From positions 32,001 through 96,000 of the forward strand of contig CAWCPV010000003.1 in NCBI GenBank assembly GCA_963797555.1: DNA of 64,000 bases, given 5' to 3'. A program made the position numbers and the translations under genes. This document shows positions 10,338 to 30,539 of the stretch, one piece after another; the stretch's first letter is position 1, and each line of letters begins with the position of its first letter. The DNA is from an uncultured Gammaproteobacteria bacterium (GTDB lineage Bacteria > Pseudomonadota > Gammaproteobacteria > CAWCPV01). Below the pieces are notes generated by a model, which saw only the letters and a list, made by a program, of their open reading frames with translations, made no database searches and was not told where the DNA came from.

Positions 10338-12348
10338 GTGTCCGAGCAAGACATCCTGATGGGCGGTGCCCGGCGCATCGAGATCGGCCGCGACGCCGTC
10401 GGCAACACCATCATCACCGGCGACGGCAACGTCGTCGGTGATCGAAGCGGTGCGGCGCCTTCCGGACCCGCAGGCCGCGCCACCCGGCTCGGCCCCAACC
10501 CTTACAAGGGGCTGGCCGCGTTCGACGAGGACGACGGCGAACGTTTCTTCGGGCGTGAGGCCCTGACCGGGAAGCTCTGGGAGGCGTTGCTTGCGCTGCA
10601 CGCGCCGCTGGACGCATCGCCTCCCTTGCGGCTGCTCGCCGTGGTCGGACCTTCGGGCTGCGGCAAATCCTCCGTGGTGCGCGCAGGGCTGCTGCCTGAG
10701 CTGGCGCGCCGGCCGCTCCCTGGCCTGGAGCGCTCGCGAGTCGCGGTGCTCACCCCCGGGGCGCACCCGCTGGAGGCGCTCGCCACCGTGCTGGCGCGTA
10801 TCGCGACGGACGATCCGGCCCCCATCGCCAAGGCGCGAGAATTCGCAGAAGAACTGAAGAGACCCCCGCACGACGGTCTGCGGCGCATCGGTGACGCCTT
10901 CCCGGGCAGCGCCAGCGCCCCCCTCGTCGTGCTGGTCGATCAGTTCGAGGAGGCTTATGCCCTCTGCCAGGACCCCACCGAGCGCGATGCCTTCATCGCC
11001 AATCTGATGGAGGCGGCGGCCGACCGCGGCGCCCGGGTCTCCGTGGTGCTGACGCTGCGCAGCGACTTCCTCGGTGCCACCGTGCGCCATCCGGCCCTCA
11101 ACGCGCCATCGCCGACCAGGGCATCCTGGTGCCGGCCATGGGCGAGGACGAGCTCCGCCGGGCCATTGCCGAGCCGGCGCGGCGGGCCGGCCATCCGCTG
11201 GAAGAGGCCACCGTCGATCGGCTGATCGGCGAGACCCTGGGCCGCGAGGGGGCGCTGCCGCTGCTCGAGTTCACCCTCACCCGCATTTGGGAGGGGCTTG
11301 CCGAGGGCAAGGCACCGGCCGAGACGCTGAGGGCGTTGGGCGGGGTGGGCGGTGCGCTCGCCGGGGAGGCCGAGCGGCTGTTCGAGCGGCTGACCGAATC
11401 CCAGCAGCAGATTGCGCGGCGTGCCTTCCTCGCCTTGGTGCGGCTCGGGGAGGGCACGCGGGACACGCGCCGGCGCGCGGTTCTCCCCGAGATGGTGGCT
11501 GCGGGCGAGCGTCCCGAGCAGGTGCAGGAGGTCCTGCGCGCCTTCGCGCGGGCGGGCGAGCGGCTGGTCACGCTCTCCGACGGAGGGCGGCGAGGTGTGG
11601 GCGGAGGTTACCCACGAGGCCCTCTTCGAGCACTGGACGCGGCTCCAGGGCTGGTTGACGACGGGTCGCGACGACCTGCGCTTTCACCGGCGCCTCGCTG
11701 AGGCGGCCGAGCACTGGGACCGGGCGGGACGCCCCGAGGGCCTGCTCTGGCGCCCGCCCGACCTGGATCTGCTGGATGCTTTCCAGCGCCGCGCTAGAGC
11801 GGACATGACAGCCCTGGAGGTGGACTTCCACCACACCTCGCTGGCTCGGGAACGGGCGCGTCGCCTCGCCAAGCGCGCGACGGTCTCGGGCCTGGTCCTG
11901 CTGCTGATTCTGATGGGGGGCCTCGGGGTGCTCTTGGAGCATCAGCGTAGGCTGGCCGACGAGCAGACGCACGAGGCCGAGACGGCTCGTCACCGCGCCG
12001 AGGAGCAAAGGGGCCTGGCGGAGCAGCAGAGGCTTCAGGCCGACATGGCTCGGCAACAAGCCGAGGAACAAAGAACTCTCGCAACCGCCAGGGAGCTGGC
12101 GGCCAGGGCGAATCTGGCGCTCGCAAGCTTTTCTGAATGGTGTAGTGTCCTGAGCACGCTTCTGTCCGTCGAGTCAGTCCGGCGACAGCCCACCTTCGAG
12201 GGCCAAATGGCTCTGATGGCTGGTCTACGGGTGCTGCGCTGCCCCATCGCCCGCCTTCCGCATGACGCTTGGGTCGAGGCCGTCGCCTTCAGCCCGGACG
12301 GCACGCGCCTCGCCACCGCAAGCAAGGACAGGACCGCGCGGCTCTACG
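10338..12348 (+). pseudogene. nSTAND1-type NTPase + TM + WD40, frameshifted and truncated after the first WD40 repeat
   Basis: NPYKGLAAF, FFGRE, Walker A GPSGCGKSS, Walker B LVDQFEE, GALPLLEF, HEALFEHW, WD40 VAFSPDGTRLATASKDRTARLY spread over 3 frames. Confidence 0.85.
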
Positions 12349-12434
12349 ATAAATTCGTGGCGCGCCTCCGCGCGCTGCTCGCCGCTCAGGTAGTCATCCG
12401 CGCTGACAGGGGTCCAGTGGGCGTGCGAAGCCAT
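12349..12434 (-). pseudogene. N-terminal fragment of a Uma2-family endonuclease
   Basis: MASHAHWTPVSADDYLSGEQRAEARHEFI, abutting the truncated WD40 gene on the opposite strand. Confidence 0.55.
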
Positions 12435-12600
12435 GGCTTCCCATCGCTGAGGTCGATGCCGCCCATCATAAGGACCTGAAGCGGGAACCACAAACGCGCC
12501 GCAAGCGCGGGTGCTGGGGAGTCCACGGCGCAGCCGTGTCGGCCGCCATCCCGCCGGGCAACGCTGGGCTCTGCCCACCCGCCGATCAGAACCCAGAAAC

Positions 12601-15441
12601 TCAGAAATCAGAATCCGCCAGGGACACCACCACCCGAAACCCCAGGGCGTAGCCGAAGCTGCCGGGATGATCCCTGCTCCGGTAGGCGCAGCGCGCGACC
12701 CTGCGGTCGCTGCTCCAGGAACCGCCGCGCACCACGCGCGGGCCCTCCGCCTGCGGGTCCTCTCGCCCGTCCTCGGCCGATACGGGTAATCCCGGTAGAG
12801 GCTCGCCGTCCACTCCCAGACGTTGCCGGAGAGGTCGTGGATGCCCTGCGCCGTGGCACCGGAGGGATAGACGCCCACCGGGGTCGTCCGCAGCACGCGC
12901 CCCTCGGCGGTATTGGCCCGCTCCGGACTCCAGCGGCGTCCCCACGGGTAGCGCCCTCCGCGGGGGTAGCGGGCGGCGCGCTCCCAGGCCGCCTCGCTGG
13001 GGAGGGCAACGCCCTGCCCCGGCGCGAGGGGCGGCTGCGCGGCGTCCCCCGCCGCCCGCCACCGGTCCTGGAGCCACAGGCAGTACGCGCGCGCCTCGAA
13101 CCAGGTGACGCCCACCACCGGCTGGCAGGGGTGGTTGAAGGGCGCGTCGTCCCAGTAGGTCGGCCGGTCCGCGGGGCGACTCCCATAGGACTTTTTCATC
13201 TCTCGGGCGAAGTCCTCCTCGTCGAGAGCCAGAGCGTCCTCCCAACGGGCCACGATCTGATGACTCCAGCCCTGCTGCCCAGCCGGCGCGGGTTCTCCTT
13301 CAGCCAGCGCCATAGGTCGATCAGGTCCTCGACCGCCTGGCTCTTCAGCTCGCCGCGCCGCCAGGCCCGAGCCTGGGCGTCGGCCACCAGCGCTCGTCCT
13401 GGTAGCCCCCCGCCTGCCAGAAGCAGGCGTACTCGGCATTGGTGACCGGGTAGCGGCCGATCCAGAAGGCCGGAAGCGGGACCTGGCAAGGGGGGAACTC
13501 GTCGCCAGCCGGCACCTTCGAAAGCCGAAGCCGGAGCAGCTCCCAGAGGCTCGAGCCCACCCGAAAGGCGCCCGCCGGCAGGGGCACGAGGGGCCGCAGC
13601 AGCACCCGCTGCCCGTCCACCGCGAGGGCCTGGAAACGCGGGTCGCCCAGGCTGCCCAGGGCTTCGCCTGCGGCGATGCGGTGGCGCAGGTGGACCTTGC
13701 GGTTCCCCATCGCCGCCAGCAGGTCGTTCTGGACGCCCTGGACCTGGCCCGGGTCCGCCGCCGCGCCGACCTCCGACAAGCAGCGGGCGGCGAGCACCGG
13801 GTTCGCCCGGCGCACCGCCTCGACGAAGGCGCCAGCATCTTCCGCGAGGCCCGCGGCCAGCACCGTCGGCTCCTCCCACCCCGTGGTCGGCGGCCCGGGC
13901 AGCGGCTCGTCCGGCCCCAGCGGGCCCGGATCGGGCATCTCCCGGACAAGCCTGCGCTGGCGCCAGCGGGGGGCGAGGTCCTCGCCTTTGGCGAAGCGCG
14001 AGAGCAGGGCGCGCGCCGAGAAGTACTCCTGGAGCTGGTGGTGGTAGAAACGAAGCTGCTCCTCGGCGCGCGCGTCCCGCTCGCCCTCGCGCCGCGGCTC
14101 CACCTCGGTGTCCAGCAGGGTGGCCGCGAGCCCCAGGCGCTCGACGACCGCCGGGGCAACGTCCACCGGGCCGTCGGCGGTCTCCACCGTCCGGGGGATG
14201 CGCTGCCGCGCCTCTTTCCGCGGCAGCCGCACACCCGCCCCGAAGGGCTGCAGGGTCTCGGCCAGACCGGAGAGCGCCATGGCGAGGGCTTCTTCTCCGG
14301 GCCAGTCGGGGTGGTTGCGGTCGTGCTCCCGGGCGAGCAGCAACCTGACGAAGCCCTTGAACAGGGCGGCGCGGCTCCGCGGCCAGTCCCCGCCTTCCTT
14401 GACCAGGGCCGCCAGCATGGCGAGATACCAGGGATTGCGCACGAGGTCGAGCAGCGGGCTTCCCTCCAGCCTGCCCCAGGCCTCCCCGGCGAGCTCCGAG
14501 GTCAGGTAGCGGGCGAGAAAGGTCTGCACCCGAGGGTCGTCCAGGCGCTCGATCTCTACCTGAGGCAGCCCGAGGGGCTCGCCGTAGTCCCGGCTGCGGC
14601 AGGTGACCACCACCTGGTTGCCCGGCCGCTCGGCGAGCTTTGCGATGAAGCGGCGCCACTCCCCCACCCGCACGCGATAGTCCCGCTCGTCTTCGAAGGG
14701 CATCTCGTTCAGGGCGTCGCAGAGCAGCAGGACACCGCCGCCGTCCACCCGCGCCTGCAGGTCGGCGGTCCCGACCCACTTCCACTGCGCCTCCAGCAGC
14801 TCGTGGGGGGAGCGGTAGCCGCGGTAGTCGGCGAGCGGCAGGAACACCGGGAACGGCCCCTGCCCTTCCTCCAGCCGGCGGCGCGCCGCCTCCAGCGCCA
14901 GACGGTACAGGGTGGTGGTCTTGCCGGCCCCCGGCTCGCCCAGAAGCGCCACGGCGTGGTGGCGGCCGAGCGCCTCGGCCACGTTCTCCAGGCGCACGCG
15001 CTTCACCTGGCGCTGGGGCCCTTCCCCGAGCACCTGCAGCTCCGTGTACTCGGGGGCCAGATCCTCGCTGGTCAGCATCCCGGCCAGCGGCACGAACTGG
15101 GTCGCCCAGCGCCCGTAGCGGGGGCTCACCAGCATCGCGGCCAGGTAGGCCCGTTCGTCCCCCTGTCGGGCGGCGGCCGGCCAGAGGTCGGACGCAGCCT
15201 CCCTGGAAAGGGTCACCTGGGGAGCGCCGGGTGCGCTGACCATCAGGAGCCCCCGCGCGGGGTCCGCCTGGAGGGTCGCCTGGCGATCGGCGAGCATCTC
15301 CCGCAGGACGGAGAGGACTTCGTCGAGCTGCTCCGGGCTGAAGGGGCCAAGACGGAGGTTCAGGTCGCGGCCGATGACCGTGCCGGCCTGCACCGGCCCC
15401 GCGTAGATGGCCCCGCCTCCCGTGTCGATTCAATCCGGCAT
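12601..15441 (-). CDS. DGR target 1: NACHT/STAND NTPase + FGE-sulfatase (C-lectin) domain, frameshifted in this assembly
   Basis: Walker [61 protein letters not shown]...GFRVVVS; ~3 indels; in-frame TGA at codon 4 after ATG 15441. Confidence 0.88.
12622..12741 (-). repeat. DGR variable repeat VR1
   Basis: 120-nt match to TR with 14 mismatches, all at TR adenines. Confidence 0.95.
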
Positions 15442-15663
15442 GTCTTGGCTCAGGGGTGCACAAGATCCCCGGCGCCGTGCCGCTCGGGCGGCAGGACGCC
15501 GGGCGCTGCGCTATTCGGCCGGCCGCGGGGCTGCCGCGGGCGCGACCCGGACCGGGCTGGGCTGGCTCTTCTCCCTGGCACCGTCCCGCATCGCTGGATG
15601 ACGGGATCTGCCGGCCGTGTCAAGCGGGCTGCGCCCGCCATGCCTCCCAGGGAAAACGGCTAT

Positions 15664-15783
15664 GGACACCACCACCCGAAACCCCAGGTTGTTGTTGAAG
15701 TTGTCGGGATGATTCCTGTTCCGGTAGGCGCAGCGCGCGTTCCTGCGGTTGTTGTTCCAGGAACCGCCGCGCACCACGCGCGG
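15664..15783 (-). ncRNA. DGR template repeat (TR)
   Basis: AAC-rich copy translating as [39 protein letters not shown], directly downstream of avd. Confidence 0.95.
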
Positions 15784-15807
15784 TGGCAGCCCGGCCCGAC
15801 ATCCAGT

Positions 15808-16155
15808 CTAGCGCAATTCTCTCCCCGGTCGACTCTTGCGCCAACCGCCGAGCAGCCTGCCGATTTCCTCCACCATGCGCGAGACGTGCTCGTACTGCCC
15901 GTCACTGAGAAGGTCCAGGTCGCGGCACAGCCGCAGGTGGAGCCGCAGCTTGACCAGGGTTACGTCGGCCTTCTGAAGCATGGGCTGAGCGTCGCTGGCG
16001 CAAGCCGCCTCAATCAGCTCCTCGTGGAAACGCAGTGCCGTTTCCTGTAGGGCCTGCGCCAGGACGAAGCGCTGCTGTCGGGGAAACCGCAGGGTGGCCG
16101 GTATGAGCCAGCGCAGGAGGTCGTAGGTGCGGGAGAAGATGGGTGATTCCTTCAT
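15808..16155 (-). CDS. avd: DGR accessory variability determinant (four-helix bundle)
   Basis: MKESPIFSRTYDLL...FPRQQRFVLAQ...LRLHLRL...EIGRLLGGW; lies between RT and TR. Confidence 0.92.
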   Translation of the reverse strand: MKESPIFSRTYDLLRWLIPATLRFPRQQRFVLAQALQETALRFHEELIEAACASDAQPMLQKADVTLVKLRLHLRLCRDLDLLSDGQYEHVSRMVEEIGRLLGGWRKSRPGRELR

Positions 16156-16226
16156 CGGCGCCAGCGTTCAGCGACGTAGGGCAGCTCGACCTGCCGCATC
16201 ACCGCCCGGCGGCCATCAGCGGACGG

Positions 16227-17386
16227 CTACCCAGTCCTCGTCGCTCCACGTTCCATGTCACTCCCGGCTCGAACAGCGAGCCCCAGAGTCGTCCGGTCAC
16301 ACAGCAAGGCCCGGCGCAGGCCCCAGGTGTCGCCGTGCGCCGCGTGGGCCACCCAGCCCTGGACGCGGCGAGCGAGCTGGACAGGGCTCATCTCGCCCCG
16401 TGCGGCGGCTTGCCGCCAGGCCCTCAGCCGCCGGGCGAACGCCACCCCATTGCGCCGCCTCAGGCGCCGGTGGGTGGGAAAGACCGTGAATCCCAGGAAC
16501 GGGACGCCGTTCCTCACCGGATAGACCGTGCTGGAGCGCTCGTGGAGCGTGAGGCGAAGCGAGGCGAGCCGCTCCCGGATCGAGCCCCTTCCATTCCCAG
16601 AGCCGGCCCTTGTCGTCGCCGAACAGCAGGAAGTCGTCCACGAACCTGAGGTACGCCGGGCAGCGCAGGCGGCGCTTCACGAACTGGTCCAGGTCGTCGA
16701 GGTACACGTTCGCCCAGAACTGGCTGGTCAGGTTGCCGATGGGCAGCCCCCTGGGCCGGTTGACCGCGAACAGGTCGTCTCCGGGGAAATACACCATCGT
16801 GTACTCGTCCTTCAGCACCTCGGCGCCGTTCTCGAGGGTCACGTCGATGAGCCAGAGCACTCCGGGATCGGCGATCCTGCGGGCGAGCATGGCCCTCAGG
16901 CAACCGAGATCCACGCTGGGAAAGAACTGTCGGAACGTCGCACTGAAGCACGAAGCGGTAACGCCTCGCGAATGCCTGGGCGCGGTCCAGGGCGCGGTGG
17001 GTCCCCTTTCCTACCCGGTTGGCGTAGGAATCGTCGATGAACGACCTTTCGAACAGGGGCTCGATGACGTTGCAGAGGGCGTGATGAACGACCCGGTCTC
17101 GAAACGGGGCGGCGGAGATCAGGCGGCGCTTCGGATCGCGGATATAGAAGGAACCGTACGGCCCCGGCCGGTAGGTGCGCTCCCGAAGCTCCCGCTCCAG
17201 CTCGAGAAGGTTATGCTCCAGGTCGAACTCGAAGGCGGAGGCGGGCGAGCGCGGCGCTCGTCCGTGCGGTGCGTGGTGCTCGGAGCCCTCCCTGCCCCGC
17301 TTGCCGCGCGCGGCCTTTTGCCAGGCGCTGTACAGGTTCGCGAACGAGGTTACCCGCGGGTACAGGTTGTTGTAGGTTCGGGTCAA
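16227..17386 (-). CDS. DGR reverse transcriptase, frameshifted in this assembly
   Basis: [32 protein letters not shown] (DGR-type SQ motif), RFVDDF, GVPFLGF; probable TTG start at 17386. Confidence 0.93.
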
Positions 17387-17465
17387 TGGGGAGCCTCGTG
17401 GCAACAGGGAGGACGCCGGAAAGCCCGCCCCTCCGCATCCTCGCGCCGAATCAGAAGCCAGAAAC

Positions 17466-20379
17466 TCAGAATACAGAATCCGCCAGGGACACCACCACCC
17501 GAAACCCCAGGGAGATCGAGGAAGTAGTCGGGATGATTCCTGCTCCGGTAGGCGCAGCGCGCGCTCCAGCGGTCGTCGTCCCAGGAACCGCCGCGCACCA
17601 CGCGCAACGAGGGCTCCCAGTCCACCGCGAACCTTCCGAGCGGGGTGTAGGGGTACTCGCGAAAGGCGCTCAGGGTCCACTCCCAGACGTTGCCCGCTGC
17701 ATCCTGGAGCCCCGCCGGCGTCGCGCCGAGGGGGTACATGCCGACGGCGGTGGGGTGCCCGATCCCGCTATCGTCGATATTGGCCCTGTCCTCGTCCCAG
17801 TCGGCGTCTCCCAGGGGAAGGGGCGGGCGTCGGCATGGCGGGCGGCCTTCTCCCACTCGGCCTCGGTGGGCAGGCGAATCCGATGGCCCTCGGGCATGGA
17901 AAACCCTGGTTGGTCTGACCCCCGTAGCTGCGCGTCGAGCCATGCGCAGTAGACCATGGCCTCGAACCAGGAGACGCCGATGACGGGGCGGTTCGCGAAG
18001 GGCCTCTGCGCGTCCCACCCCACGGGGGCGCCCCGAAGCTCCGCGGGGCGGGATCGCAGCCAGTCTCGCAGGGCCTCCGCCTCCGGCCGGCTGTCCCAGC
18101 GCCCGTGACGCCACTCCCAGCCGAGGGCCGTCCACCAGGTCTCGTCGTCGTAGCCGCCCGCCTCGACGAAGGTTTCGACCTGCCGCACCGTCACCGGATA
18201 GCGGCCGATCCAGTATCGGTAAGGAATTTCCAGACGCTCCGGATTGCCCATCTCGTCCTCCCTCTCGCGGCTCCCCATAACGAAGGGGCCGCGCGGGGAT
18301 CTCGATGAAGCCTGCCAGGGGCTCCGGCTCGCCCCGGTAAGCGCGGGGAAGGTGGAAGCGAGCGGGGTCGAAGCGAGGGTCGCCGAGCTGGCCCAGGACA
18401 TCGCCGGCCTCGGCCCGGTCGCGCGCAGACAGGGCGCCCTGCTCCAGGAGGTCGACCAGGCGCCCGGCGACCCGGCGCAGCAGCGACTCGCCCTCCTCCT
18501 CGTCGCAGGCGCGCTGGACGCCCACCTCAAGCAGCACGTCCCCCGCGAGCCAGACCTTTCTCCAGTCCCCTTCTGCGCGCGATACCCGCTCCGGGCAGAG
18601 CGCCCGGACCAGGTTCAAGGGCTTCTCGGTCTCCCGCTTGTCGTGGACCAGATAGCCGACCGCCAGCAGGATCACCTCCCGCCAAAAGGTGCCCTGCTTC
18701 GCCAACGCGGCGGCTTCCCTGCCGAAATTCGGCCGGCGCGCGAGGTGCACGGAGGCCAGGTATTCCTGGAAGGTGCGGTGGGGAAAGGAGAACAGCCGCC
18801 CCTTGCGCTCGATGAGCAGGCTCGCCCGAAGGCGCAGGGTCTTTAGGAGCCGTTGCGACCACCCGTAGTCGTCCTTGGGGTGCAGCCGGGCCAGGCCCTT
18901 CAGCAGGGTCAGCTCGTCGATGCCGGCCGCCTCGTCCTCCGAGCCGCCTGCGGCACGCTCGGCATGGGCCTCGAAGGCGAGCCGCTCGAGCACGCCCCTG
19001 AGGTCGTTCAGGTCCCGGCCCACCTCCCGCAGGAGGTCCTGCAGATGCGGAGCCTCCACCTCCTTGTACTGCTCCCAGTGCAGCAGCAGGATGTCCACGG
19101 CGTCTCGATAGAGCAGGGCGCGCTTCTCCGGCAGCTCCCGGCGGTGGGTGTGGACCAGCGCCATGACGGTCAGCAGCAGGGGGTTCGGGGCGAGGCGCCA
19201 CAGGTCCGGGCGGCGCACCGCCTCGCGGAGCTTTCCCGCCAGGCGCTCGGACTCGCCGGGCGGGAGGTCCCGCCACTTGTCGGCCACCTCGGCGTACCAG
19301 GCGCCGATGAAGCGGTCGATCTTCTCCTCGCTGAAGGGCGCCAGCTCGAAGGCCGGGAAGGCCGCCGCCGGGAGCTGCCAGTGCGGCTCCTGATAGGAGA
19401 GCACCCGGCAGGTGACCAGGTGGCGGCTGCGCCCGAAGCGTTCGGCGAAGGCCTGCACGCCGCTGCGGACCAGGGCGAGCAGCTTCTCGTCCTGGGGCGG
19501 GACTTCGTCCAGCCCATCCAGCAGGACCACGGCCTGCCCGTCGTCCAGGGCGCGCTCCAGCACACCGGCGGCGAAATCCAGGCGGCGCGCCTTGAGGTCG
19601 TGGCAGACGAACGCCCAAAGCAGATCCGGGGAACCCTCGGCGGGCCGCGGGTCGCGCCGCGCGAGCCAGCGGGCGAAGTCGCGCAGGACGACGGGAATCG
19701 GCAGGGCCTTCCGGTCCCGCTCGGGCCAGTCGGGGATGCTGTCCCAGTCGCAGGTGGCGAGCGCCCGGGTCAGGTGGTTGACGAAGGTGCTCTTTCCGGA
19801 GCCGGGGTCTCCGACCAGCACCAGGGAGCCGTGCAGGACGCTCGCCTCCAGAGCGGACAGGGGGCGGGTCTCCGGGTCGCGGCCGGCAATATCCCGTCCT
19901 CGCTGCTCGGGCAGCCCCGGGGGTTGGCCTTTGGCCGCGGCTCTCAGGGCGCCGTCGATGGCGCCGGAGGGCAGCATCGTCGTCGTGTCCAGGCGGATGT
20001 AGACGCGGGCGAGGCTGAGCGGCTGGCGCACCGCGGAGACCTCTCCCGGCGCGGCGTCCACGCCCCGCAACGGCAGCGCGCCGCAGCGCTCGGCGACCAC
20101 GGCCCGGTAGATGGCCTCGGCGCGCTCGGGCGACGCCGGGGTGGCCCCGATGTACACCCCGCCCTGGATGATGATCTGGTCTCGCGCGACAACGTCGCGG
20201 GCTGCGTGCACCTCCCCGCCGAAGACGCCCCCGCCCCCGGTGTCGAGGAGCGGCTCGAGCTTGGCCTGAAGCTCCGCCTTATTCTGGTCGGTGACCTCGT
20301 CCCCCAGCACGCCTCTCAGGGACTCCAGCTTGCTCAACTGCTCACGCAGACGGGCGATGACGTTGTCCTTTTCCTCCAT
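17466..20379 (-). CDS. DGR target 2: NACHT/STAND NTPase + FGE-sulfatase (C-lectin) domain, frameshifted in this assembly
   Basis: [65 protein letters not shown]. Confidence 0.9.
17487..17605 (-). repeat. DGR variable repeat VR2
   Basis: Matches TR with 12-13 substitutions, all at TR adenines, plus a 1-nt insertion. Confidence 0.93.
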
Positions 20380-21508
20380 GCTTCGCCATCCCCTCCGTGT
20401 CGGTCAGACCAGCCAGTCCGGTCCCCCGGGCCGTCTCGCTATCCGCACACCGCCTCTCGTTGACGCAGGGCGTCTCACGGGAAAAGCGGGCGCGGCGAGG
20501 GCTCTCGGCATCGGCAGGAGCTTTTCCTCGGGGCCGGCCCTTCAGGGCTCGTAACTCCCAGGCGGGTCACATAGCGGCGGTCGGGGCGTGCGCCCCGTCT
20601 CTGACCAGGCGCAGGTCCTGGACCAATGTCGAGACCCGGCGCTCTTCCAGCCCCGCCTGTGGATCAGGGCCCGCAGCTCCGCGAGCAGTGCCAGGAATTC
20701 CTGCAGGGTGACGTTCGAAGCAAGCTCCACCCGGTTGCCGTCGCCGGTGACGATGGTGCTCCCGCTCACGCTGCCGCCCACGGCGACGCCCCGGTCGCCG
20801 ATGATGATCCGGTCCCGCCAGTGACCTCTTGCGCGTGGACAGGTCCCAGGAACAGGGCTCCGCCCCCGGTGTCGACGACCTTGGGCTGGTGCGGAAGGTC
20901 CGGACTGCGCCGTGGGGCCTCGGGGGGTGGCACCGTGCGGCCGGCATCTTTGTGCGACTCCGCCGTGAGCCCTTCTCGGGCGCTGCCTTCGCTTCGGGTG
21001 GAGGGGCGCCGAAGGAACTCCCGAACCAGTGCGGCGACGGCGGCGACGAGCACCGCCAGGCCCAGCAGCCAGGCGAGCACACCGGACCAGCCCGACTCGA
21101 CGCAGGGAGAAGATCATTGCAGGGAAACCCGGGCCTTTGCTCGGCTTCCCCGCCCCCGGACTCCGCCTTCTTGGCTGGCGCGGTCGGCCTCGGCTGGCGA
21201 CGGCGCCGGAGCGGAAGCAGGCTTTGCTACCAACGCCGCCTGCGCCAGGGGAAACACGAAGTCTCCCTTGTCCAGACGAGGGTCGACGGATGGTGCCGGA
21301 TCTGGGGATGCTGGGCACCGCGGGTGTAGCACGCCTCTCAGGGACTCCAGCTTGCTCAACTGCTCACGCAGACGGGCGATGACGTCGTCCTTTTCCTCCA
21401 TGCTTCGCCATCCCCTCCGTGTCGGTCAGACCAGCCAGTCCGGTCCCCCGGGCCGTCTCGCGATCCGCACACCGCCTCTCGTTGACGCAGGGCGTCTCAC
21501 GGGAAAAG
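20306..21508. repeat. 181-bp direct repeat (20306-20486 and 21328-21508)
   Basis: Two copies with 2 mismatches; covers the upstream region and first 25 codons of DGR target 2. Confidence 0.9.
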
Positions 21509-22119
21509 ATTCCGGGCGTCCTCTCGGAGATGTGTTCGGGGACGCTGCGCGAGAGGTAGAACAGCGAGCCGGAGAAGCAGCTATCGAACAGGAACAGGGC
21601 GTGCTTGGCCTCGATGCGCCTGGCATAGTGCGGGAACTCCTCCATGTCGAGGGCGGCGGCGAGAAAGCCATGGGGATCGTCGTCCGGGCGGGGGGCGTCT
21701 ACCGGGACGATGTAGCCCATCTCCGCCCCGTAGGAGAGCTTCCGGGTGTAGCCGTGGCCCGCGAAGTAGAACAGCAGGCGGTCGTCCACGCCGCCCCCGT
21801 GGGCGTTGATGAAGTCCTCGAAGGCCCGGCGCAGCGCCCCGCGATCGGGGTCCTCCACCACCGTGACCCGGAACCCCTGGCGCTCCAGCGCTCCGCGGAC
21901 GCTCTTCACGTCCTCCTTCACACCCGGAAGCTTGGGCCAGTGCTGGTACTCGCTCGCCCCAATCACCAGGGCGTAGCTATTCCGGTAAAGGCCCACCTCC
22001 TGGCCGGCCGGGTTCTTGTAGATGACCACGCCGCGCTCCTCCCCCGAGGCGCCCGAGGCGGCCGGGGACAGCCCGAGGCCCAGGAGCCACGCGGCGACGA
22101 ATACGCGTGTGCCTCTCAT
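20567..22119 (-). pseudogene. Signal peptide + caspase-like C14 peptidase + TM + cytoplasmic Gly-rich motif tail (disrupted)
   Basis: MRGTRVFVAAWLLGLG signal; YFAGHG/FDSCFSG dyad; remnant YTRGAQHPQ..GTIR..DKGDFVF; TM LAWLLGLAVLVAAVAALV; tail DTGGGALFLGPVHA..IVTGDGNRV. Confidence 0.75.
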
Positions 22120-22146: not shown

Positions 22147-22170
22147 TTCGCGGCTGAAGCCGCTCCTACA
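22147..22170 (-). repeat. GTAG-type REP-like element
   Basis: TGTAGGAGCGGCTTCAGCCGCGAA on the minus strand. Confidence 0.55.
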
Positions 22171-22288
22171 GGCCGCGATTTTGGCGCGGCGGTAGCCCGC
22201 GGCTTAGGTCGCGGCCGAACAATTTGGCGACCTCTCCCCTCGCCAGCCGGAAGCCCCGTGGACTCATGGCAGCAGCCCCGTCCCGGAG

Positions 22289-23092
22289 TTAAGCAAGGTG
22301 GAAAGCGGCCACCTCCAGAGGGTTCCCCACCTCGTCCTCGCTGTCGGCGCCGAACGCGAGATCCGTGCTCACCTCGTGTTTCGTAGATATGGCCGCCGAG
22401 GCGAGACCCCAGAGAATGCCCAGACACCAGAACGGGATGAGCCAGTCGCAAAGGTAGATGTACTGGCGGGTGTGGTAAAGCTCGTGCTTGAACGGGGTGT
22501 GGCCGTACCACGTGTTCACCGTGCATCCCACGGTGGTCGCGTAGTGGCCGCCGGTGTCGGGGGAGAACTCGGTGAAGAACACCCCGCCCGCGAACCCGGA
22601 CTTGCCGCTCCCGAAGATTGCCCAGACGAGGCCCGCGACCCAGATGGCGAGCCCCGCCGCCGAGGTTACCAGCGCGAAGGGCAGCTTGGCAGGCGCCACC
22701 AGAAAAGAGAAAAAGAACGGGCCCGGGGCGAGCCGCGCCCCGAGCGCCGCCGAGCCGTAGTCCAGCGCCGCCGCCCACAGCGTCGCTCCGAGCCTGATTC
22801 CGGCCAGCGTCCAGAAAAACGTCGCGGGGTGGCCCAGGGCGTGGCGGAACCCCTCGGAGGCCGCCCAGATCCACGCGAACAGGCCATGGGAGAACACGAA
22901 GAAGAAGGTCGCGGCCGCACCGGCGTCGGGGCTCGCACCGGCGAACAGGAAGTAGCCGGCCAGGACGCCCGCCAGGTAATCGAAGACCAGCTCGCTCCAA
23001 CTGAAGGTCCAGCTCACCAGCATGTTGATGCCGGCACAGAGCAGTACCACACATGGCCAGAACACGAAAGCGACCACGTAGACGTTGTTCAT
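22289..23092 (-). CDS. Polytopic membrane protein with HExxH motif
   Basis: Several hydrophobic helices; KHELYHTRQY and NPLEVAA. Confidence 0.65.
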   Translation of the reverse strand: MNNVYVVAFVFWPCVVLLCAGINMLVSWTFSWSELVFDYLAGVLAGYFLFAGASPDAGAAATFFFVFSHGLFAWIWAASEGFRHALGHPATFFWTLAGIRLGATLWAAALDYGSAALGARLAPGPFFFSFLVAPAKLPFALVTSAAGLAIWVAGLVWAIFGSGKSGFAGGVFFTEFSPDTGGHYATTVGCTVNTWYGHTPFKHELYHTRQYIYLCDWLIPFWCLGILWGLASAAISTKHEVSTDLAFGADSEDEVGNPLEVAAFHLA

Positions 23093-23246
23093 GATCGGCT
23101 ACACCCCCCTTTGCCCCGATGAGACGCGCTGTCAGCACCCGATTGTTTTCAGGACAGCATAGCCCAGCGTGCTGCGCCGCGTGCTGGCCTGCACGGCGTC
23201 GCCCGGCGCCTCGCGCGGGCTGTCCGCCCGTCCCTCCCCGGTCGTC

Positions 23247-23804
23247 CTACTTTGGCCCTTCGGCGGGCGCTCCAGCACCGGACGAAGTCTCTTCAGGCTC
23301 GACGGAGCGGGTCAGCACGTCCAGGCTGTCGTTGACCTTGGAGAGAAGGTCGTTCACGGCCTTCACTCCGGAAGCCGCCGTCTGTTTGGCCTTTTCCTCC
23401 AGCCTTTGCCGCTGCTTCTTGAGCGCGTTCAATTGGTCCACCAGCGAGGCCTTCTGCTGCTCGGTCGCTCCCAACGCCTTCTGTTCCAGGACATTGACCT
23501 TGGTCTGAAGATCCTGCAGTTCTCCCACGACTTTCTGCTGGGCCTCGGTCGCCGGCTGCGCTGCCGGCGCGCCCGCCTGTTCGCCCCCCTGGGTGGGTTG
23601 GGGCGCCCCAGCCCCGCCGGTGGCTTCGCCTGCCGGGGCCGGCGGCGGCTGTTCGGTGGGCGCAGTGGCTGCGCCGGTCCCGGGGGTTTGCTGCTGCGCG
23701 CCGCTTTCGGGCGCCTGTTCGGAAGTGTGGTCCTCCTTGCCGCAGGATGCGATGGCGAGTGATGCGCTGGCGAGCGCAATCGCGAAGAGTTGCTCGATCT
23801 TCAT
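23247..23804 (-). CDS. Lipoprotein, low-complexity linker + coiled coil
   Basis: MKIEQLFAIALASASLAIASC lipobox. Confidence 0.7.
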   Translation of the reverse strand: MKIEQLFAIALASASLAIASCGKEDHTSEQAPESGAQQQTPGTGAATAPTEQPPPAPAGEATGGAGAPQPTQGGEQAGAPAAQPATEAQQKVVGELQDLQTKVNVLEQKALGATEQQKASLVDQLNALKKQRQRLEEKAKQTAASGVKAVNDLLSKVNDSLDVLTRSVEPEETSSGAGAPAEGPK

Positions 23805-23952
23805 GAGGTTCTCCCTGACTGTGCGTCTCTCTGGAAGTGGTGACAACCGCGGCCGCCCCGTGGCTTTGCCCCGCTCATGCGGCCCGGACCGTGCGTTCGC
23901 GAAAGCCAGGATGAGGCAAGACGAGGGGCGAGTCCAGCCCAGCCCCGCGGCT

Positions 23953-26900
23953 TCACCCGCGCGGTCCCAACAAGCCCGACAACGTTCCCCACAAACGACG
24001 GTACCACGGCACGCGGCCGGCCGGGCGCGCGGCCGCCTCGGCCTCGGGGCGCAGTGCCTGCTCGAAGGCGCTTATCCAGGCTCGCTGCGCCGCGGTCAGG
24101 CGAGATTCGGCTTGCAGGCCCTGGAGGATGTCGAGCCCGCGCTGCAGCAGCGCCCGTGCCTCCGCGGATTGCGTAGGCCCTCCGAGGGCCTGCGCGACTT
24201 TCCAGCAGGACACCACGACATCCGCCTGCCAGCCGGCGTTGCTCGGGTCCTGGGCGGCCAGGCGCTCGCGGATGGCGAGGCTCTCCCGGTAACTCTGGAG
24301 CGCCCCGGCGCCCTCGCCCTGGGCGGCCAGGATGTCCCCGACCTTGTTGTAGCTCACCGAGAGGTCGCGCTGCCACCCGGCGTTGCTCGGGTCCTGGGCG
24401 GCCAGGCGCTCGCGGATGGCGAGGCTCTCCCGGTAACTCTGGAGCGCCCCGGCGCCCTCGCCCTGGGCGGCCAGGATGTCCCCGACCTTGTTGTAGCTCA
24501 CCGAGAGGTCGCGCTGCCACCCGGCGTTGCTCGGGTCCTGGGCGGCCAGGGCGCTCGCGGATGGCGAGGCTCTCCCGATAAGCCTGGAGCGCCCCGGCGC
24601 CCTCGCCCTGGGCGGCCAGGATGTCCCCGACCTTGTCGTAGCTCACCGAGAGGTCGCGCTGCCAGCCGGCGTTGCTCGGGTCCTGGGCGGCCAGGCGCTC
24701 GCGGATGGCGAGGCTCTCCCGATAAGCCTGGAGCGCCCCGGCGCCCTCGCCCTGGGCGGCCAGGATGTTTCCGACCCTCTCGTAGCTCACCGAGAGGTCG
24801 CGCTGCCAGCCGGCGTTGCTCGGGTCCTGGGCGGCCAGGGCATCCAGGCACTCGACGGCGTGCTCCAGCCACGCGCGGGCCGTTTCCAGGTATCCGAGGC
24901 CGGCCCAGGCGTCGCCCTGGAGCAGTGCGAAGGCTCCCTCGTTCCGGAGGCCGAGCCTCCAGGGCGCGGCCACGCTGCCCAGGGCGCCGAGGCCGTCCAG
25001 GTAGCGACCTCGGCCGTAGAGCCACTCCGTGAGCGGGAGCAGCAGGTCGCAGGCGCGGTCGGTCTCGCCCACCTCGCCCAGGTGGTGAGCGGCCTCCCAG
25101 GCGTCGTTCCAATCGGCCGAGGTGGCGGCGCGGCGCTCCAGGAAATCTCCCGCGCGGCGGTGGCCTTCGGCCACCAGCGCGTCAAGGTCGGGCGTGAGTC
25201 CGCGGGCCAGGCTCGCCACGCTCGGCTCCACCTCGAAGCGCCGCCGCACCCGGCCGTCCGGGGCCGGCTCGGCCACCTCGGTGAGCAGGGACGCGTCCCG
25301 CAGGCGGCGAATGGACGCCTCCGGAGCGTCGTCGCCCAGGGCCCCGAACAGGTCCCAGTCGGCCGGCAGGCGCAGCACCGTGGCGCGCACCAGCAACCGT
25401 CGGGCGGGCTGGTCCAGCACCCGCTCCCACAGCGCCTCGAACAGCAGGTCCTCGGAGAGCTGCTGGCCGAGCGGTGGTAGCAGGGGCTTGACAAGATGCG
25501 TCCACTCCTTGTTCGCCTCGTCCTCGTCGGCGGCCGGCGCGTCCACGTCGTGCAGGGTCTGGGCGGGCTCGGCAAGACCGCGTTGTGCGTCGAGGCCCTC
25601 AAAGTCTACCGCCGGCAGGGCCGCGAGGTCCTCCACCTCTGGTGCGCCGAGGTGGAAGAGTCCGCGGATGCGGTGGAGGGGCTGGTCCGCCAGCTCGAGC
25701 AGGCCGCCGCGCCGCTGGCCGGCGAGGTGTGGGACGCCCTGCTCGCCGGCCTCGACCAGGTGGCCGCCGCCCATCCCGACCTGCAGCGTCCGGCCGGGCG
25801 CCTCGGGGTGCTCCTCGCCGCCCTCCTGGCCCGCGAGGGGCAGGGGCCGCTGGTGCTCTACCTGGACAACCTCGAGTCCCTGCTGACTGCGCCCGAGGCG
25901 GAGGACGCCTTCGGCGACTGGCGCGACCCCGAGTGCGCCGCCCTGTGGCGGGTGCTGCGAGAACGCGCCGCGGCCTCCGCGGGACGCCTCGCGCTGCTCG
26001 CTTCCTGCCGTTACCGCCACCGAGACTTCGCCGACGTGCTGCTGCCTTTGCGGCGGCTGCCGCCCGACGCCCTGTGGCGGCTCATGGGGTGGTTTCCCGG
26101 GCTGCGCCGCCTCTCCCGCTGGAGCCTCAAGCGGCTGGTGGAGGGGCTCGCGGGCCACCCCTGGCGCAGGTCCCGGCGCAAGGCGTGCAGCTCCCGGCGG
26201 CGTCCCACGAAGCCCTGGCGCAGGATGCGGGTGCGCGACCCCGGCGCCACCTCCTCCTCGAGGCGCTCGGGGGGAGCCTCCACGGTCTCGGTGTACCGCT
26301 TGGGGATAGGGAGCCCGAGGGGATAGTCGGGGCCGCGGTGGTAGAAGACGAGCTGGGCCCAGGCAAAGGGGGTTAGGCCACCGGAGGCTCCGGAGGCGTC
26401 GCGCAACACCTGGCGGGCGTCGGGCACGAGCGGCCGGGCCATCGCCTGCCGGGCGGCGCGCACCGCGTCGCGGGTACGCCGGCCGCGGGCGATCTCGCCG
26501 TAAAAGGCCGCCTCCGCCCAGGTGGACTGGGCGTCGTAAACCGGGCCGAAGTAGGCCACCACCTGAGCCACGCCGTCGCGGTGGAGCAGCGCGGCGGCGG
26601 AGGCGATGCCGGCCTGCTCGCCGGCGCCCAGGCTGGGGGCATCGCCCCCGTGACAGCAGGCGAGGTAGAAGAAACGCGGGAACCGCGCCGGTGCGGCGCG
26701 GCGCATATCCTTCAGCAACCGGTCGACCGGCACGCCGTCCTGGCCGCCGAAGGCGTCCTCGAACACCAGCTCGCCCGGCCCGCCGTGGCCGGAGAAGTGC
26801 ACGCCGAGCGGCGGCGGGTTGGCACGCAGGCCCTCGACCAGGTCGTCCAGCTCCCCCATCTCGTTGACCTGCACCCCGACATGATCGTGCAGCGCCCGGG

Positions 26901-27609
26901 TGATGTAGTAGCTCTCGGCCTCGTAGTCGAGCCCGCTGCCCTCGGGCGCCGAAACGTTGATGAGCAGGCGCACCGGCTCCGCGGGCGGGGCGAGGACGGG
27001 TGTCCCTGGGGCGGGGACCGAGCGCGCCACGTCCAGGCGTCCTTCCTGCACGGCGTAACGACCTTCGAGCCGCAGCAGTTCCCAGGGGAGGGCCAGGATG
27101 AAGTCGTCCGCGCTCTCGATTACCAGCAGTGGCGGCGGGCCGTCCCCGTGGGCGGCCGCGGTGAGCGTCTCGGCCTCTTCGGGGGCGAGCACTCGCCCCA
27201 GCGCCTCGCCCAGCGCGAGAGCATGGGCCTGGACCGCCTGGCGCTCGCCGTCGTCCTCGATGGCGCGCCGGCTGAGCCGCCAGAAGCCCTCCAGGGCGGG
27301 GCCGAAGCCCGGTGTCGCGGCCCAGGGCACCGGTACCGTGCGGGAGGCGCCTCCGGCCTCCGACCGGCTCGCCGCGATCTCCCAAGCGGAGCGCGCTTCG
27401 TCGGCATAGCCGATGGAAAGGGTCAGGGTGGGCAAGGGCACCGCGCCCGGCACGTCCTGGGCCTTGAGGACCCCACCCTCCAGTTGGGCAATCAGCTCCG
27501 CCGTCAGCTCGGTGATGCCCGGAAACACGTAGACCCGGTTGTCGTCCCCGGTGATGATGACGTTGCCGTGCGCATCGTGCCCGATGTGCACCTGCCTCTC
27601 CCCGTTCAT
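23953..27609 (-). pseudogene. CHAT protease + STAND NTPase + TPR repeats, with the NTPase segment inverted
   Basis: LPWELL, VHFSGHG, FYLACCHG, GFVGRRREL; Walker A/B read on the plus strand at 25.5-26.2 kb; 48-aa TPR repeats. Confidence 0.85.
24228..24840 (-). repeat. Near-identical 144-bp TPR tandem repeats (~4 units)
   Basis: AAQDPSNAGWQRDLSVSY(NK/DK/ER)VG(D/N)ILAAQGEGAGALQ(S/A)YRESLAIRERL. Confidence 0.9.
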
Positions 27610-27973
27610 GCGCCCCCTCCTGCTCCCTGCTGCGCGCTTCGCGCGGCCGGAATTAGGGTCGGCTTTCCCGCCGACCACGGCACCCAGGTTGGAAGTTTAA
27701 CCTGCCCCGGGCGGACGGTAGGCTTCCCGTCTTGGGTGGCGTTACCGAATCCAGCGGCCCTCCCGGAGGGGCGGCTAGGCTCCCGCCGTCGTCCACTCGC
27801 GAGTGGCCAGCAGACCGTCCTCGTGCAATACCAAGTTACCCCTGCGGTACCGGACCGCCGTCGGCCTTCCAGCCTCCTCCGGGGCTGCTGACCATGCCCG
27901 GCTTCCAAGAATGAACAGCGCGTGTCACAGACCCAAGAGGCGGAACCGATGTGGTCCTTCCAAGCCCGACACG

Positions 27974-29181
27974 TCATGGCCACCAGCGGCCCACATCCCC
28001 AACGGCGTGCGCGACCTCTACCAGTGCCTCTGTGCCGCCCATGCCGGCAATAACCGGTGCGCTTGGAACCAAGACTTGCAGCATTTCATAACGCGATCCG
28101 AGCATGGCAGCCGCCACCAGGCCACTCCAGCGGAAGTGCAGCATTTGGCGCGGCAGCTCCACAAACCCGGCAAAGCAGGACAGGGCCTTGGCTCGCAAAT
28201 TCTGATCCCCGATGCCCCGCGCCACCCCTAAGGCTTGCCCGAGCAGCGGCTCGGGCAGGTGCGGCAACAGATCCGCCAGGACCCCGGCCCGCTCGGACTC
28301 ACTCCCGATGCGCCGCATCGCCTCCAGGGTTTCGGCCAGAACCGAGGCGCGCAGCGACTCTGACAGGTACGGGCGCCAGTCGGCCGAGGGCCTCGGCACG
28401 CTCATACCCATCCCCGATAATGCCGCGCGCGCTCGCTGAAGAGCGGCTCCAGGCGCGCAACCTCGCGCGGCACGTCGACGTTGAGGGCGACCGGGACCGG
28501 GCGCTGGGTGGCGACGACGTAGACGCCCTGGGGCAGGCCGCGCGGCAGCGCGAGTACGTTCTCCCCGCTTTCGGCGGGCAGCTCGTCGAGCGCGTCCACC
28601 GCCAGGACGATGGGCTCGTCCGCGCGCTTGGCGTCGCGTTTCGCCGCAGCCTGCTGGAGCGGCCGGCTCAGGTAATTCGGCTGGCCGGCGTGCTGCGGAA
28701 GCGCCGCCACCTCGGACTCGAGCAGCCACGCCCGCAGGAGCTGGGCGGCGAGGCTGCGGCGGGCGGTGGCCGGGTCGTGGCCGCCGGGGAGCTCCGGGAA
28801 GTGGTGCACGTAGGCGCGCTCGCGCACCAGGTGCGCCAGGTAGGCGGTCTTTCCCAGCCCGGCGGGCGCCTCGATGACGAAGTAGCCGCGGTCATGGGTG
28901 CGCAGAAAGGCATCCAGGCGCTCCGTGAGCCAGCCCCGCCCGGCGAAGCGCTCCAGGTGCACGCGCTCGAACACCTGGGCCGGCGAAAGATAAGCGTCGA
29001 GCAAGGGCTGGTCCGGGCCGACGAACACCTGCTCCGCGCTGATCAGCAAACTGTTGACGACGTTGCCGCCGACCTGGATGCGCCGGTCGTGGATGATGCT
29101 GTGGTCGCCCTGGACGATGTTGCCGAGGTTGTCCCCGTGCACGTCGGCCCGTCGGTCAGGGCTTTGCGGTTTGCGGAACAT
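27974..29181 (-). pseudogene. STAND NTPase with helical-repeat C-terminus, internally deleted
   Basis: FAGRGWL, Walker A APAGLGKT, Walker B AVDALDE, then an abrupt jump to ERAGVLADLLPHLPEPLLGQAL repeats ending RWWP. Confidence 0.7.
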
Positions 29182-29191
29182 CGGCTCGGCG

Positions 29192-30539
29192 CTATTCCTT
29201 GGCCTGGTCCCGGCGCCCGTCGCGGGACACGCGCACGCCGTCGCCGCTGATCAGCGTGCTGCCAGTGACGTCGCCCCCGACCTGGATGCGACGGTCGTGG
29301 ATGATGCTGTGATCGTCCTGGACGTTGTCGCCCTCCACGTGGACGTGGCGGCTCTGTCGGGGCTCGCGACGGCGCCGGAGCCAACTCCTTCCGAGCCAGC
29401 CCAGACCGCCCAGCAGGAGGGCGGTGCCGATACCCGAGAACAGTGCCTCCCAGTGGGCGCCGACCCAGCGGCGCAGCGATGCCCATGCCCCCTGCCCGTC
29501 AGGAGTGGATGCGCTCGGCCCGGTCGGGTTCTCTCGCACTGCGATCGCGGTGGACGAGGCTCCCGCGCCGATGGTCTGGACTGGCGTACCGATCAATACC
29601 TCCCGCTGCGGACCGCTTGTCGCGCAGCGCTTGCCCGCTTCCGCCGCCGATGTCTCCTTCAGCTTGAACACGAAATCTCCGCGGGACAGCTCGTAATCCT
29701 TGATGGTGCCGAACTGCGGCGTCTGAGCTTCATGCTCAGACACGGTATTGCGGAGGTAGAGCCCGAGTCTCCATACCGGTGACGTAACCGTCGCAGTCCA
29801 GGTCCCCCTTTCCGAAGCGCAGCGCGTCCACGAAGGCCGGCGCGAAGACGCTGCGCGCCGGCACGGTCTCATTGGCGCTGCCGGCGGTGATGAATTCCCG
29901 CACCGGCTCGGCCGTGATACGCGCGATGTGCGGGGGCTGCTTCGGCAGCTCACGCGCCTGGAAGACCATCCCGGAGAAACAGCTATCGAACAGGAACAGG
30001 TCGTGCTTGGCCTCGATCTCCCGCGCCCAGAGCAGCACCTGCTCCATACTCACGGCCTTTGCCTTGAAGCCGTTGGGGTCCGCGTCGGGGCTGGGCGCGT
30101 CCACGGGGACGATATAGCCCATCTCGATCCCGTCCTCGCGCTTCAGCGTGTAGCCATGACCGGCGAAGAAGAACACCAGCCGGTTGTCGTACACCCGCCC
30201 GTAGCGGTCGATGAAGTCCACGAAGGCCGCGCGGAGCTGCTGCGCGCTGGCGTCGAGGAGCTTGACGACCTGGAAGCCCTGCCCCTTCAGGGTCGCTTCG
30301 ACCTGGTCCAGCTCACCCGGCACGCTCTCCAGGTCCGGCCAGCCCCCCCTGTAGTCGCTCTCGCCGACGAGCAGCGCGTGACTCTCCCGGTAGAGGCCGA
30401 CCTGTTGCCCGCTCGGGTCCGTCACCACGACCACGCCGCGCTGGAGGTCATCGGCGCCCGGCAGGGCACCGAACCAGAGGACGGCGAGCACGGCGAGGAT
30501 GCTCCCTCCCTTGCGAGCGCGTGCTCTCCGGTTATTCAT
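29192..30539 (-). CDS. Signal peptide + caspase-like C14 peptidase + TM + cytoplasmic Gly-rich motif tail (1 frameshift near 29770)
   Basis: FFAGHG/FDSCFSG dyad; DCDGYVTG; QTPQFG; TM LFSGIGTALLLGGLGWLG followed by RRRR. Confidence 0.85.

Follow-up and report, generated by a model that had tools for sequence, protein, structure and literature searches.

A glycine/aspartate-rich module shared by STAND proteins and two caspases of an apparently exported family in a retroelement-bearing island of an uncultured gammaproteobacterium

The island and its shared module

The 64,000-nucleotide stretch of DNA analysed here (hereafter the window) is C3:32001-96000 of a 20-contig, 5.35-Mb genome (completeness 84.59%) from an uncultured gammaproteobacterium, and it contains an island of ~20 kb in which two caspase genes stand among genes for STAND (signal transduction ATPases with numerous domains) proteins and a diversity-generating retroelement (DGR). 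The G+C content of the island region is ~70% as compared to ~65% for the genome. These genes share pieces of one Gly/Asp-rich module of ~55 residues, TGGGAYIGGxVxTGGGDFVGRD...GERGVAIGGNVSGSTIVTGDxNVV, and all eight window copies align to a composite from other phyla (alignment A6). The tail of caspase 1 (tail 1) covers all of the module, tail 2 and the start of STAND C its last two thirds, the nSTAND1 and CHAT starts its last third, and STAND A and STAND B its first two thirds. A preliminary description of the window had taken these pieces for two motif classes that tail 1 could bridge, but the two classes turned out to be halves of one standard module.

Each caspase gene lies directly upstream of a STAND gene, as had been described, with 10 nt between the stop of caspase 2 and the start of STAND C and 187 nt between the end of caspase 1 and the start of STAND B. 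The reported match between tail 2 and the N-terminus of STAND C comprises 29 identical residues out of 48 (E 5e-15), and in this pair the motif is shared between the C-terminus of an effector and the N-terminus of the adjacent collinear STAND protein. At the DNA level it appears as an 88-nt repeat of 83% identity, in whose 18-codon core 17 residues are identical with only 3 silent differences. Profile hidden Markov models (HMMs) were then cross-tested on the 106,744 six-frame open reading frames (ORFs) of the genome, where single E-values are modest (0.0013 to 0.2). The class I HMM, built from STAND A and B, found tail 1 at rank 3 (E 1e-4), the class II HMM, built from the nSTAND1 and CHAT starts only, found the two tails next best (E 0.034 and 0.041), and an HMM from the tails only ranked three STAND starts next (E 0.0058 to 0.21); no unrelated ORF in these ranks was better than E 0.2. 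The likeness of tail 1 to the DGR targets and that of its second half to the nSTAND1 and CHAT starts, both pointed out in the preliminary description, are thereby borne out, and the motif sharing is beyond chance. Generic low-complexity linkers are ruled out by the cross-validated HMM ranks together with class II profile matches in other genomes.

No family for the tails is found in Pfam, NCBIfam or PADLOC, and the module is modelled by neither Pfam nor NCBIfam. At E <=0.01, Pfam gave no EAD1-EAD11, bDLD or amyloid-motif family for the tail pieces and those STAND proteins that were scanned, Pfam presumably holding RHIM and HET-s models, and the window copies belong to none of the named effector-associated domain (EAD) families (EAD1-EAD11, bDLD). 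A complex prediction with two STAND C N-termini and two copies of tail 2 scored 0.30 with the mark at 0.34, which weighs neither way on binding, and the ESM Atlas returned nothing usable for tail 2. The module strings were not found in the literature searched, where paper supplements may list the module.

STAND-type NTPase domains are present in the motif-bearing genes as nSTAND1, NACHT or AAA_16, the NTPase of the CHAT gene lying on the other strand (Table 1). NACHT is clear in STAND A (E 3e-12) and weak, below cut-off, in STAND B (8.8e-6). The contiguous CHAT-STAND gene of the preliminary description could not be retained, as the P-loop piece sits on the plus strand between CHAT and TPR parts that are both on the minus strand. 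An inverted repeat was considered as the cause of this flipped piece and none was found flanking it. Within the TPR part, 24117-24982 holds five copies of a 289-nt unit, ~144 nt apart and with 65-95% identity, which encode the TPR repeats. The DGR with two targets was confirmed: a template repeat (TR), two variable repeats (VRs) that differ from it at adenines, and bAvd. In the three-way TR/VR alignment differences occur almost only at TR adenines, and the reverse transcriptase (RT) is recognisable by eye, no RVT_1 match being listed at the window RT in the genome profile search.

Several of the sensor frames can be followed through their breaks. For nSTAND1, two single-base differences in a short-read contig join the pieces into a single frame of 750 aa (10227-12476), and the STAND C frame grows from 282 to 425 aa with an extra base found in short-read contigs. 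STAND A is 57.9% identical to a protein of locus L044, with tblastn frames -2/-1/-3/-2, and STAND B, in which two compensating frame changes are hidden in the open frame, is 59.5% identical to a protein of locus L022 (tblastn frames -2/-3/-2). The closest relatives found belong to an uncultured proteobacterium for STAND B and to an Anaerolineales metagenome-assembled genome (MAG) for STAND A. Because these are different phyla, the sequences suggest that the DGR-target sensors were transferred across phyla.

Table 1. Features of the island and their positions in the window.
Feature	Position	Strand	Content
nSTAND1-WD40 gene	10338..12476	+	last third of module at start (IEIGRDAVGNTIITGDGNVV, 10377-10436); Pfam nSTAND1 E 1.6e-49, WD40; two frame changes
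STAND A, NACHT + FGE-sulfatase, DGR target	12607..15441	-	first two thirds of module (IDTGGGAIYAGPVQAGTVIGRD, 15364-15429) right after in-frame stop; three frame changes
DGR template repeat	15640..15800	-	VRs 12598-12758 and 17464-17624; repeat family D2
bAvd, DGR accessory protein	15811..16167	-	Pfam bAvd E 2.1e-18
DGR reverse transcriptase	16227..17767	-	over three reading frames; stop-to-stop frames read by eye
STAND B, NACHT + FGE-sulfatase, DGR target	17383..20379	-	module from 20247 down, behind 45-residue helical leader
Repeat R1	20306..20486	-	STAND B upstream region and first 25 codons; repeat D3
Caspase 1, 3' remnant	20567..21327	-	GDFVF family end, in-frame stop, transmembrane (TM) helix ~21024-21092, tail with whole module, short helix VTLQEFLALLAELRALI
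Repeat R2	21328..21508	-	R1 copy inside caspase 1, in place of ~85 codons of caspase fold
Caspase 1, 5' part	21509..22119	-	hydrophobic leader and caspase domain to just past catalytic Cys; Peptidase_C14 model positions 3-134/233
TPR repeats, downstream of CHAT	23956..24982	-	144-nt tandem units, repeat D1; Pfam TPR_10, TPR_12
P-loop NTPase piece	25481..26323	+	AAA_16 E 1.4e-10; codon-position GC profile; opposite strand to CHAT and TPR
CHAT protease gene	26014..27609	-	last third of module at start (VHIGHDAHGNVIITGDDNRV, 27532-27591); Pfam CHAT E 2.8e-10
STAND C (AAA_16/nSTAND1-like)	27977..29181	-	module at residues 14-48 (29038-29142); Pfam AAA_16; at least one frame change
Caspase 2, 3' piece	29192..29767	-	LGLYLRNTV...RGDFVF, linker, weak TM ~29390-29446, Arg-rich flank, tail module 29237-29341
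Caspase 2, 5' piece	29769..30539	-	hydrophobic leader and complete caspase core

The surroundings of the island contain further genes of interest. Just upstream, 7905-9824 (+) codes for a protein of 639 aa that contains five PASTA repeats (E 7.5e-58). On the other side, the 941-aa protein encoded at 31405-34230 (+) has a caspase domain (E 6.7e-20) and begins with a hydrophobic segment, while its C-terminal end is apparently out of frame, and a 1004-aa TPR-CHAT protein (CHAT E 4.8e-59) adjoins the island at 34332-37346 (-).

The caspases and the state of the island

The 5' pieces of both caspases match Pfam PF00656 Peptidase_C14 (caspase 1: 21364-22119(-), E 7.5e-19, 68.8 bits; caspase 2: 29736-30539(-), E 1.6e-12, 48.1 bits; cut-off 21.4) and are 49% identical to each other. 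The catalytic residues are kept in FAGHGY (HG) and FDSCFSG (DSC), in agreement with the intact dyad described before. In the two window caspases and in 10 out of 10 homologues, visual inspection of the leader suggests a charged n-region, then a hydrophobic core and a small-residue site ahead of a conserved RG(V/I). Ahead of each tail a hydrophobic stretch is followed by an Arg-rich flank, and the positive-inside rule, likewise applied by eye, would place the tails on the cytoplasmic side. Of the proposed genes for a signal peptide, caspase, TM helix and tail, the caspase domains, the leader, the hydrophobic stretch and the tail therefore stand, whereas the claim of genuine open genes does not: a complete caspase domain in one ORF is found in neither, with a shift at 29768 in one gene and the R2 insertion, a stop and shifts in the other.

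In caspase 2 the first frame leads from 30539 to DGYVTGME at ~29769 and the next one to the stop at 29192. A tblastn search with P0027, a 573-aa leader-caspase-FGE-sulfatase protein, locates a single frame change at 29768 (frame -3 to 29769, frame -1 from 29767; DNA atggag-a-ctcggg), and caspase 2 is one frame change from intact. With the same query, caspase 1 is matched from 22077 to 21517 only (q28-211). It is interrupted by the 181-nt repeat D3, in which 21328-21508 equals 20306-20486 with 99% identity, two mismatches and sharp ends. An in-frame stop follows ahead of the strongly hydrophobic TM helix, and three-frame translation shows the halves of the tail 1 module in different frames, the VDTGGG half versus the VAVGG... 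half (20820-20885, 20707-20820). A further frame shift lies near 20662, and one short-read contig has an extra base behind this position. Caspase 1 in this assembly is a rearranged remnant. The second copy of the STAND B start, with its upstream region, ATG and 25 codons, continues in frame into this remnant, from 21328-21508 down to ~21115, and the fusion ORF MEEKDD...GDFVFPL... could, as read from the sequence, be expressed without a caspase domain. Directly upstream of caspase 1, 22292-23098 (-) is a 269-aa ORF with a strong codon bias and hydrophobic N-terminal segments, which matched no Pfam or PADLOC family.

A comparison with other caspases points to the origin of both genes. Caspase 2 is 67% identical to P0027 over 259 aa, the leader included, and 21% identical to the cytoplasmic caspase of locus L036. 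The family of P0027 (P0002-P0040, 'caspase family protein' of Pseudomonadota MAGs) combines leader and caspase with an FGE, PEGA or other C-terminus; the window caspases keep its ...DGYVTG.ELGLYL...RGDFVF end and carry a TM helix and motif tail instead. Accordingly, the 40 database relatives listed for the caspase 2 3' piece cover the caspase end only (18-49% of the query) and have C-terminal FGE, PEGA or other domains, and the piece matched 0 of 60 class-level genomes. Judged from these alignments, the window caspases are members of the exported family in which the C-terminal FGE domain was swapped for a TM helix and module tail. Paralogues on contig C14 of the same genome are intact-looking caspase-FGE proteins flanking an RT. 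There, C14:5786-11051 (L015) contains two leader-caspase-FGE-sulfatase genes around the RT (RVT_1 at C14:8178-8786), their 5' ends seemingly cut by frame changes, and the locus looks like a second DGR targeting exported caspase-FGE proteins.

Frame breaks are not limited to the caspases. At least 13 fall within the island and hit most of its genes including the DGR RT. As intactness controls we used gyrA, secA and an ileS model, and these housekeeping genes are whole: gyrA has an 858-aa frame that matches its model in full, secA is open over 910 aa, and the frames of two synthetase-like genes measure 1021 and 848 aa; neither rpoB nor rpoC was found in the 84.59%-complete genome. Since these genes are whole, the breakage is local and a genome-wide indel problem is ruled out as its source, as are homopolymer errors, the break sites being outside long homopolymers. 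The conflict loci on C2 and C14 of the same genome are likewise broken. Contigs from a marsh metagenome (two short-read runs, 90-99% identity) have single-base differences at some break sites and reopen frames at three sites among those listed; this comparison covers 12 of 36 indel rows, the caspase 2 break in none of them, and the contigs represent a small share. The frame breaks could reflect either a poor consensus in a strain-variable, multi-copy region or real decay.

The module in other genomes

The starting point of the module search was a small protein of the same genome (C2:196527-197231), which carries VVDTGGGAYIGGNVTTGGGDFIGRDQ and whose 13 aligned relatives have invariant G, A, Y, G, V, G, F, G, R and D. 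In an AlphaFold2 model (13 sequences) residues 1-77 of the small protein, the module included, have a pLDDT (predicted local distance difference test) of ~40 and residues 81-168 form a four-helix bundle with ~88; the ESM Atlas gave unnamed clusters and TCAD2 at 0.89. The surrounding locus L014 (C2:189581-197231) holds a DUF4062 protein, two NACHT genes with module-like starts, of which one changes frame immediately behind the module, and the small protein P0042, which combines the module with a four-helix bundle. In P0042 the helical part matches the PADLOC candidate PDC-M14B (E 4.3e-8), and Foldseek of its model against the PDB gave 0 matches at E <=0.001 and generic four-helix bundles only.

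Scanning one genome per species, 249 pattern matches led to 156 confirmed copies and 78 loci that were kept, many of them cut by contig ends. The hosts are mostly Chloroflexota (Anaerolineae, Caldilineae), and Thiodictyon, Competibacteraceae, Accumulibacter and Chromatiaceae are also among them. In other genomes the class II profile, made from the window only, matches the stretch that immediately follows the class I motif (...GDFVGRDKNVTAGERGVAIGGNVTGSTIVTGDHNVVGSTITLQQEF), with E-values down to 1.1e-8 in a set of 8,437 ORFs. In 400 genomes of the own phylum there was no true match to the class II profile A1 or the composite A6, the match in G117 being in an antisense frame. Among the proteins scanned, three kinds carry the module: 24 long proteins have it near the start (NACHT in 19, nSTAND1 in 3, FGE-sulfatase in 16), 28 have it late in the chain (caspase in 8, CHAT in 2, TIR_2 in 4, TCAD2 in 6, with some EAD7, EAD1, EAD8 and bDLD1), and 44 are small proteins with TCAD2 in 20 and no other family. 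In the L036 protein, for example, a caspase at 6-251 is followed by the module at 333 and TCAD2 at 367-455, and its gene lies 9 nt before a module-STAND gene.

The preliminary description had proposed to test with profiles across genomes whether caspase genes with a signal peptide, TM helix and motif sit next to STAND genes with the cognate motif. A pairing of STAND genes with effectors of other layouts was found: at least two co-oriented module ORFs, mostly adjacent, are present in 24 of the 78 loci, and the arrangement recurs across phyla. The expected likeness of cognate copies is seen as well, with 0.669 within a locus (n=15) versus 0.593 between loci (n=3066), a within-locus value that 98 of 10,000 random draws reach; it could also come from shared ancestry within a genome. 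Copies of the module are thus found on NTPases and on neighbouring effectors and recur across genomes, as for an EAD-type adaptor, and on these sequence comparisons we regard the module itself as a real adaptor. The distances between its Gly residues peak weakly at 5-6 and 11-12 residues (0.22-0.24).

Contact with the membrane is not unique to the window, because a strong hydrophobic N-terminal helix precedes the module in 6 of the 24 module-STANDs elsewhere and locus L044 (Anaerolineales) has a gene for a 143-residue protein that ends in the module, behind two hydrophobic spans and an Arg/Lys-rich flank. This gene lies 38 nt ahead of that for the closest relative of STAND A (57.9% identical). 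The membrane-spanning caspase variant, as far as sequences tell, is locally unique.

Proposed coupling at the membrane and its alternatives

Two known kinds of coupling resemble what is seen here. In EAD coupling, a small non-enzymatic element is copied on a core NTPase and on a neighbouring effector, and adjacent copies are most alike (Kaur, Burroughs, Iyer, Aravind 2020, PMC7159879; Dore et al. 2024, PMC10907252). The window follows the same logic, and caspase, trypsin and TIR effectors as well as DGR-diversified FGE/CLec-STAND sensors occur on the EAD side too. EADs are described there as folded and all-alpha except for three that are alpha+beta, whereas our module is Gly/Asp-rich and disordered in the monomer model, and compared with the systems covered there the window effector differs in being an exported-family caspase behind a TM helix. 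N-terminal extensions of DGR targets without characterised domains are also mentioned (Dore et al. 2024, PMC10907252). The second kind are the BASS motifs of Bell/NLR pairs, for which a preprint reports an effector C-terminus and NLR N-terminus on collinear genes, 57% of the pairs being <=10 bp apart (Dyrka et al. 2020). A short G/N/V/I-rich motif at these termini and collinear genes a few bases apart are shared with the window, and so are filamentous, multicellular lineages and the mention of a CHAT effector. The differences are a BASS length of ~25 residues as opposed to ~55 for the module, the usual position of the module ahead of TCAD2, and the lack of a Bell domain in the window. TCAD2 itself (PF19971, 'ternary complex associated domain 2') directly follows the module in 20 of the 44 small proteins and 6 of the 28 effectors, and tail 1 extends as far as the first helix of a bundle of this kind (alignment A6). 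The Pfam model, however, begins after the module (L036: module 333, TCAD2 from 367) and the window tails gave no TCAD2 match; no text on it was found in the literature searched.

That the motifs serve to couple effectors with the STAND proteins encoded beside them is well supported by sequence comparison, because the module recurs at STAND N-termini and in adjacent caspase, CHAT, TIR or TCAD2 proteins across phyla. For the window as a whole we lean towards a DGR-diversified STAND conflict island in which the module was grafted onto two exported-family caspases and mediates clustering at the inner membrane. The sensors that open with module pieces would be the two NACHT-FGE DGR targets, the nSTAND1-WD40 protein, the short STAND and the CHAT protein. 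Elsewhere the module appears to couple STANDs to a neighbour, either a cytoplasmic caspase, CHAT or TIR effector or a small protein with the TCAD2 four-helix bundle; here it would have been grafted onto the leader-caspase-FGE family, a TM helix and a cytoplasmic tail taking the place of the FGE domain. Activated STAND oligomers would gather their N-terminal modules, and through binding of these to the corresponding modules of the tails the anchored protein would become clustered at the inner membrane. Such clustering might lead to caspase activation on the far side, to a disturbance of the membrane or to mere tethering of the sensor.

Several observations weigh against this proposal. Both caspase genes are broken as assembled, and the proposed proteins are not encodable in this form. 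The leader and topology calls were made by eye, and the TM stretch of caspase 2 is weak, with a Kyte-Doolittle value of 1.52 (hand sum) against the mark of 1.6 for a hydrophobic span. Elsewhere, a hydrophobic span between effector and module is present in 0 of the 28 module-bearing effectors, a caspase-TM-tail layout was seen in none of the metagenome loci scanned, and a word-based database search with the TM-plus-tail region gave no match among proteins of 337-2000 aa, which is weak evidence. Finally, the island with its frame breaks, the 181-nt duplication and the inverted NTPase piece may be decaying while the housekeeping genes are whole. The preliminary description knew of no system with this transmembrane layout, and limited searches gave no example either: no passage on exported or TM-anchored caspases was found in the available parts of the conflict-system papers and of a 2026 STAND survey, although their supplements may list such architectures.

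Taken further, the state of the island could mean that it is a decaying or mis-assembled patchwork, with the caspase-TM-tail genes being non-functional recombination products and the motif sharing a result of recent duplication or gene conversion. The repeat inside caspase 1, the 88-nt repeat between tail 2 and STAND C with its nearly unchanged silent positions, the inverted NTPase piece, the breaks that reach into the RT and spare the housekeeping genes, their position outside long homopolymers and the equally broken loci on C2 and C14 would all fit this. Still, contigs of related populations reopen the frames of nSTAND1 and STAND C, the VRs differ from the TR almost only at adenines as for a recently working DGR, and the pairing of module and STAND is conserved across phyla, and for this last reason the motif sharing is no local accident; we consider a patchwork unlikely. 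A misread topology is very improbable in our view. In this case the second hydrophobic stretch of caspase 2 would not span the membrane and the whole protein with its tail would be exported, out of reach of the cytoplasmic STANDs. The stretch ALFSGIGTALLLGGLGWLG is indeed Gly-rich and its hydrophobicity lies below the mark, but seven Arg are found in the 15 residues after it versus two before, the helix of caspase 1 is strongly hydrophobic with an Arg-rich flank behind it, and an exported tail would leave the near-identity to the cytoplasmic STAND C start unexplained.

The nature of the contact between the modules is a separate question. It is unlikely, on balance, that the module is an amyloid signalling motif of the BASS or HET-s kind, where the effector copy would adopt a cross-beta or beta-solenoid fold templated by the STAND copy and seeding would propagate the signal. 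The gene-pair layout is as in Dyrka et al. 2020, with the caspase 2-STAND C gap within its range, and BASS is found there beside a CHAT domain; the module also abounds in G, V, I, N and D, has no ordered structure in the monomer model and is weakly periodic in its Gly residues. On the other hand it has about twice the length of BASS and is highly charged, it is mostly located ahead of a folded TCAD2 bundle and not at a free C-terminus, and the Pfam scan revealed no amyloid-motif family. A more specific version is distinctly unlikely, namely that the STANDs nucleate a beta-solenoid or amyloid-like stack on the tail of a periplasmic caspase, converting sensing inside into proteolysis outside, and that the module represents an undescribed, widespread signalling-amyloid family for caspase, CHAT, TIR, TCAD2 and small membrane effectors.

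Adaptor-coupled STAND systems are viewed as bacterial counterparts of apoptosomes and inflammasomes. Because the caspase genes are broken in this assembly, the case in the window is only a lead. Provided that the variant works, it would be the first example found of a protease separated by the membrane from the sensor that recruits it. Beyond the window, the N-terminal extensions of NACHT-FGE sensors can now be addressed as a searchable module of ~55 residues, which across phyla connects them with partners of the caspase, CHAT, TIR and TCAD2 kinds.

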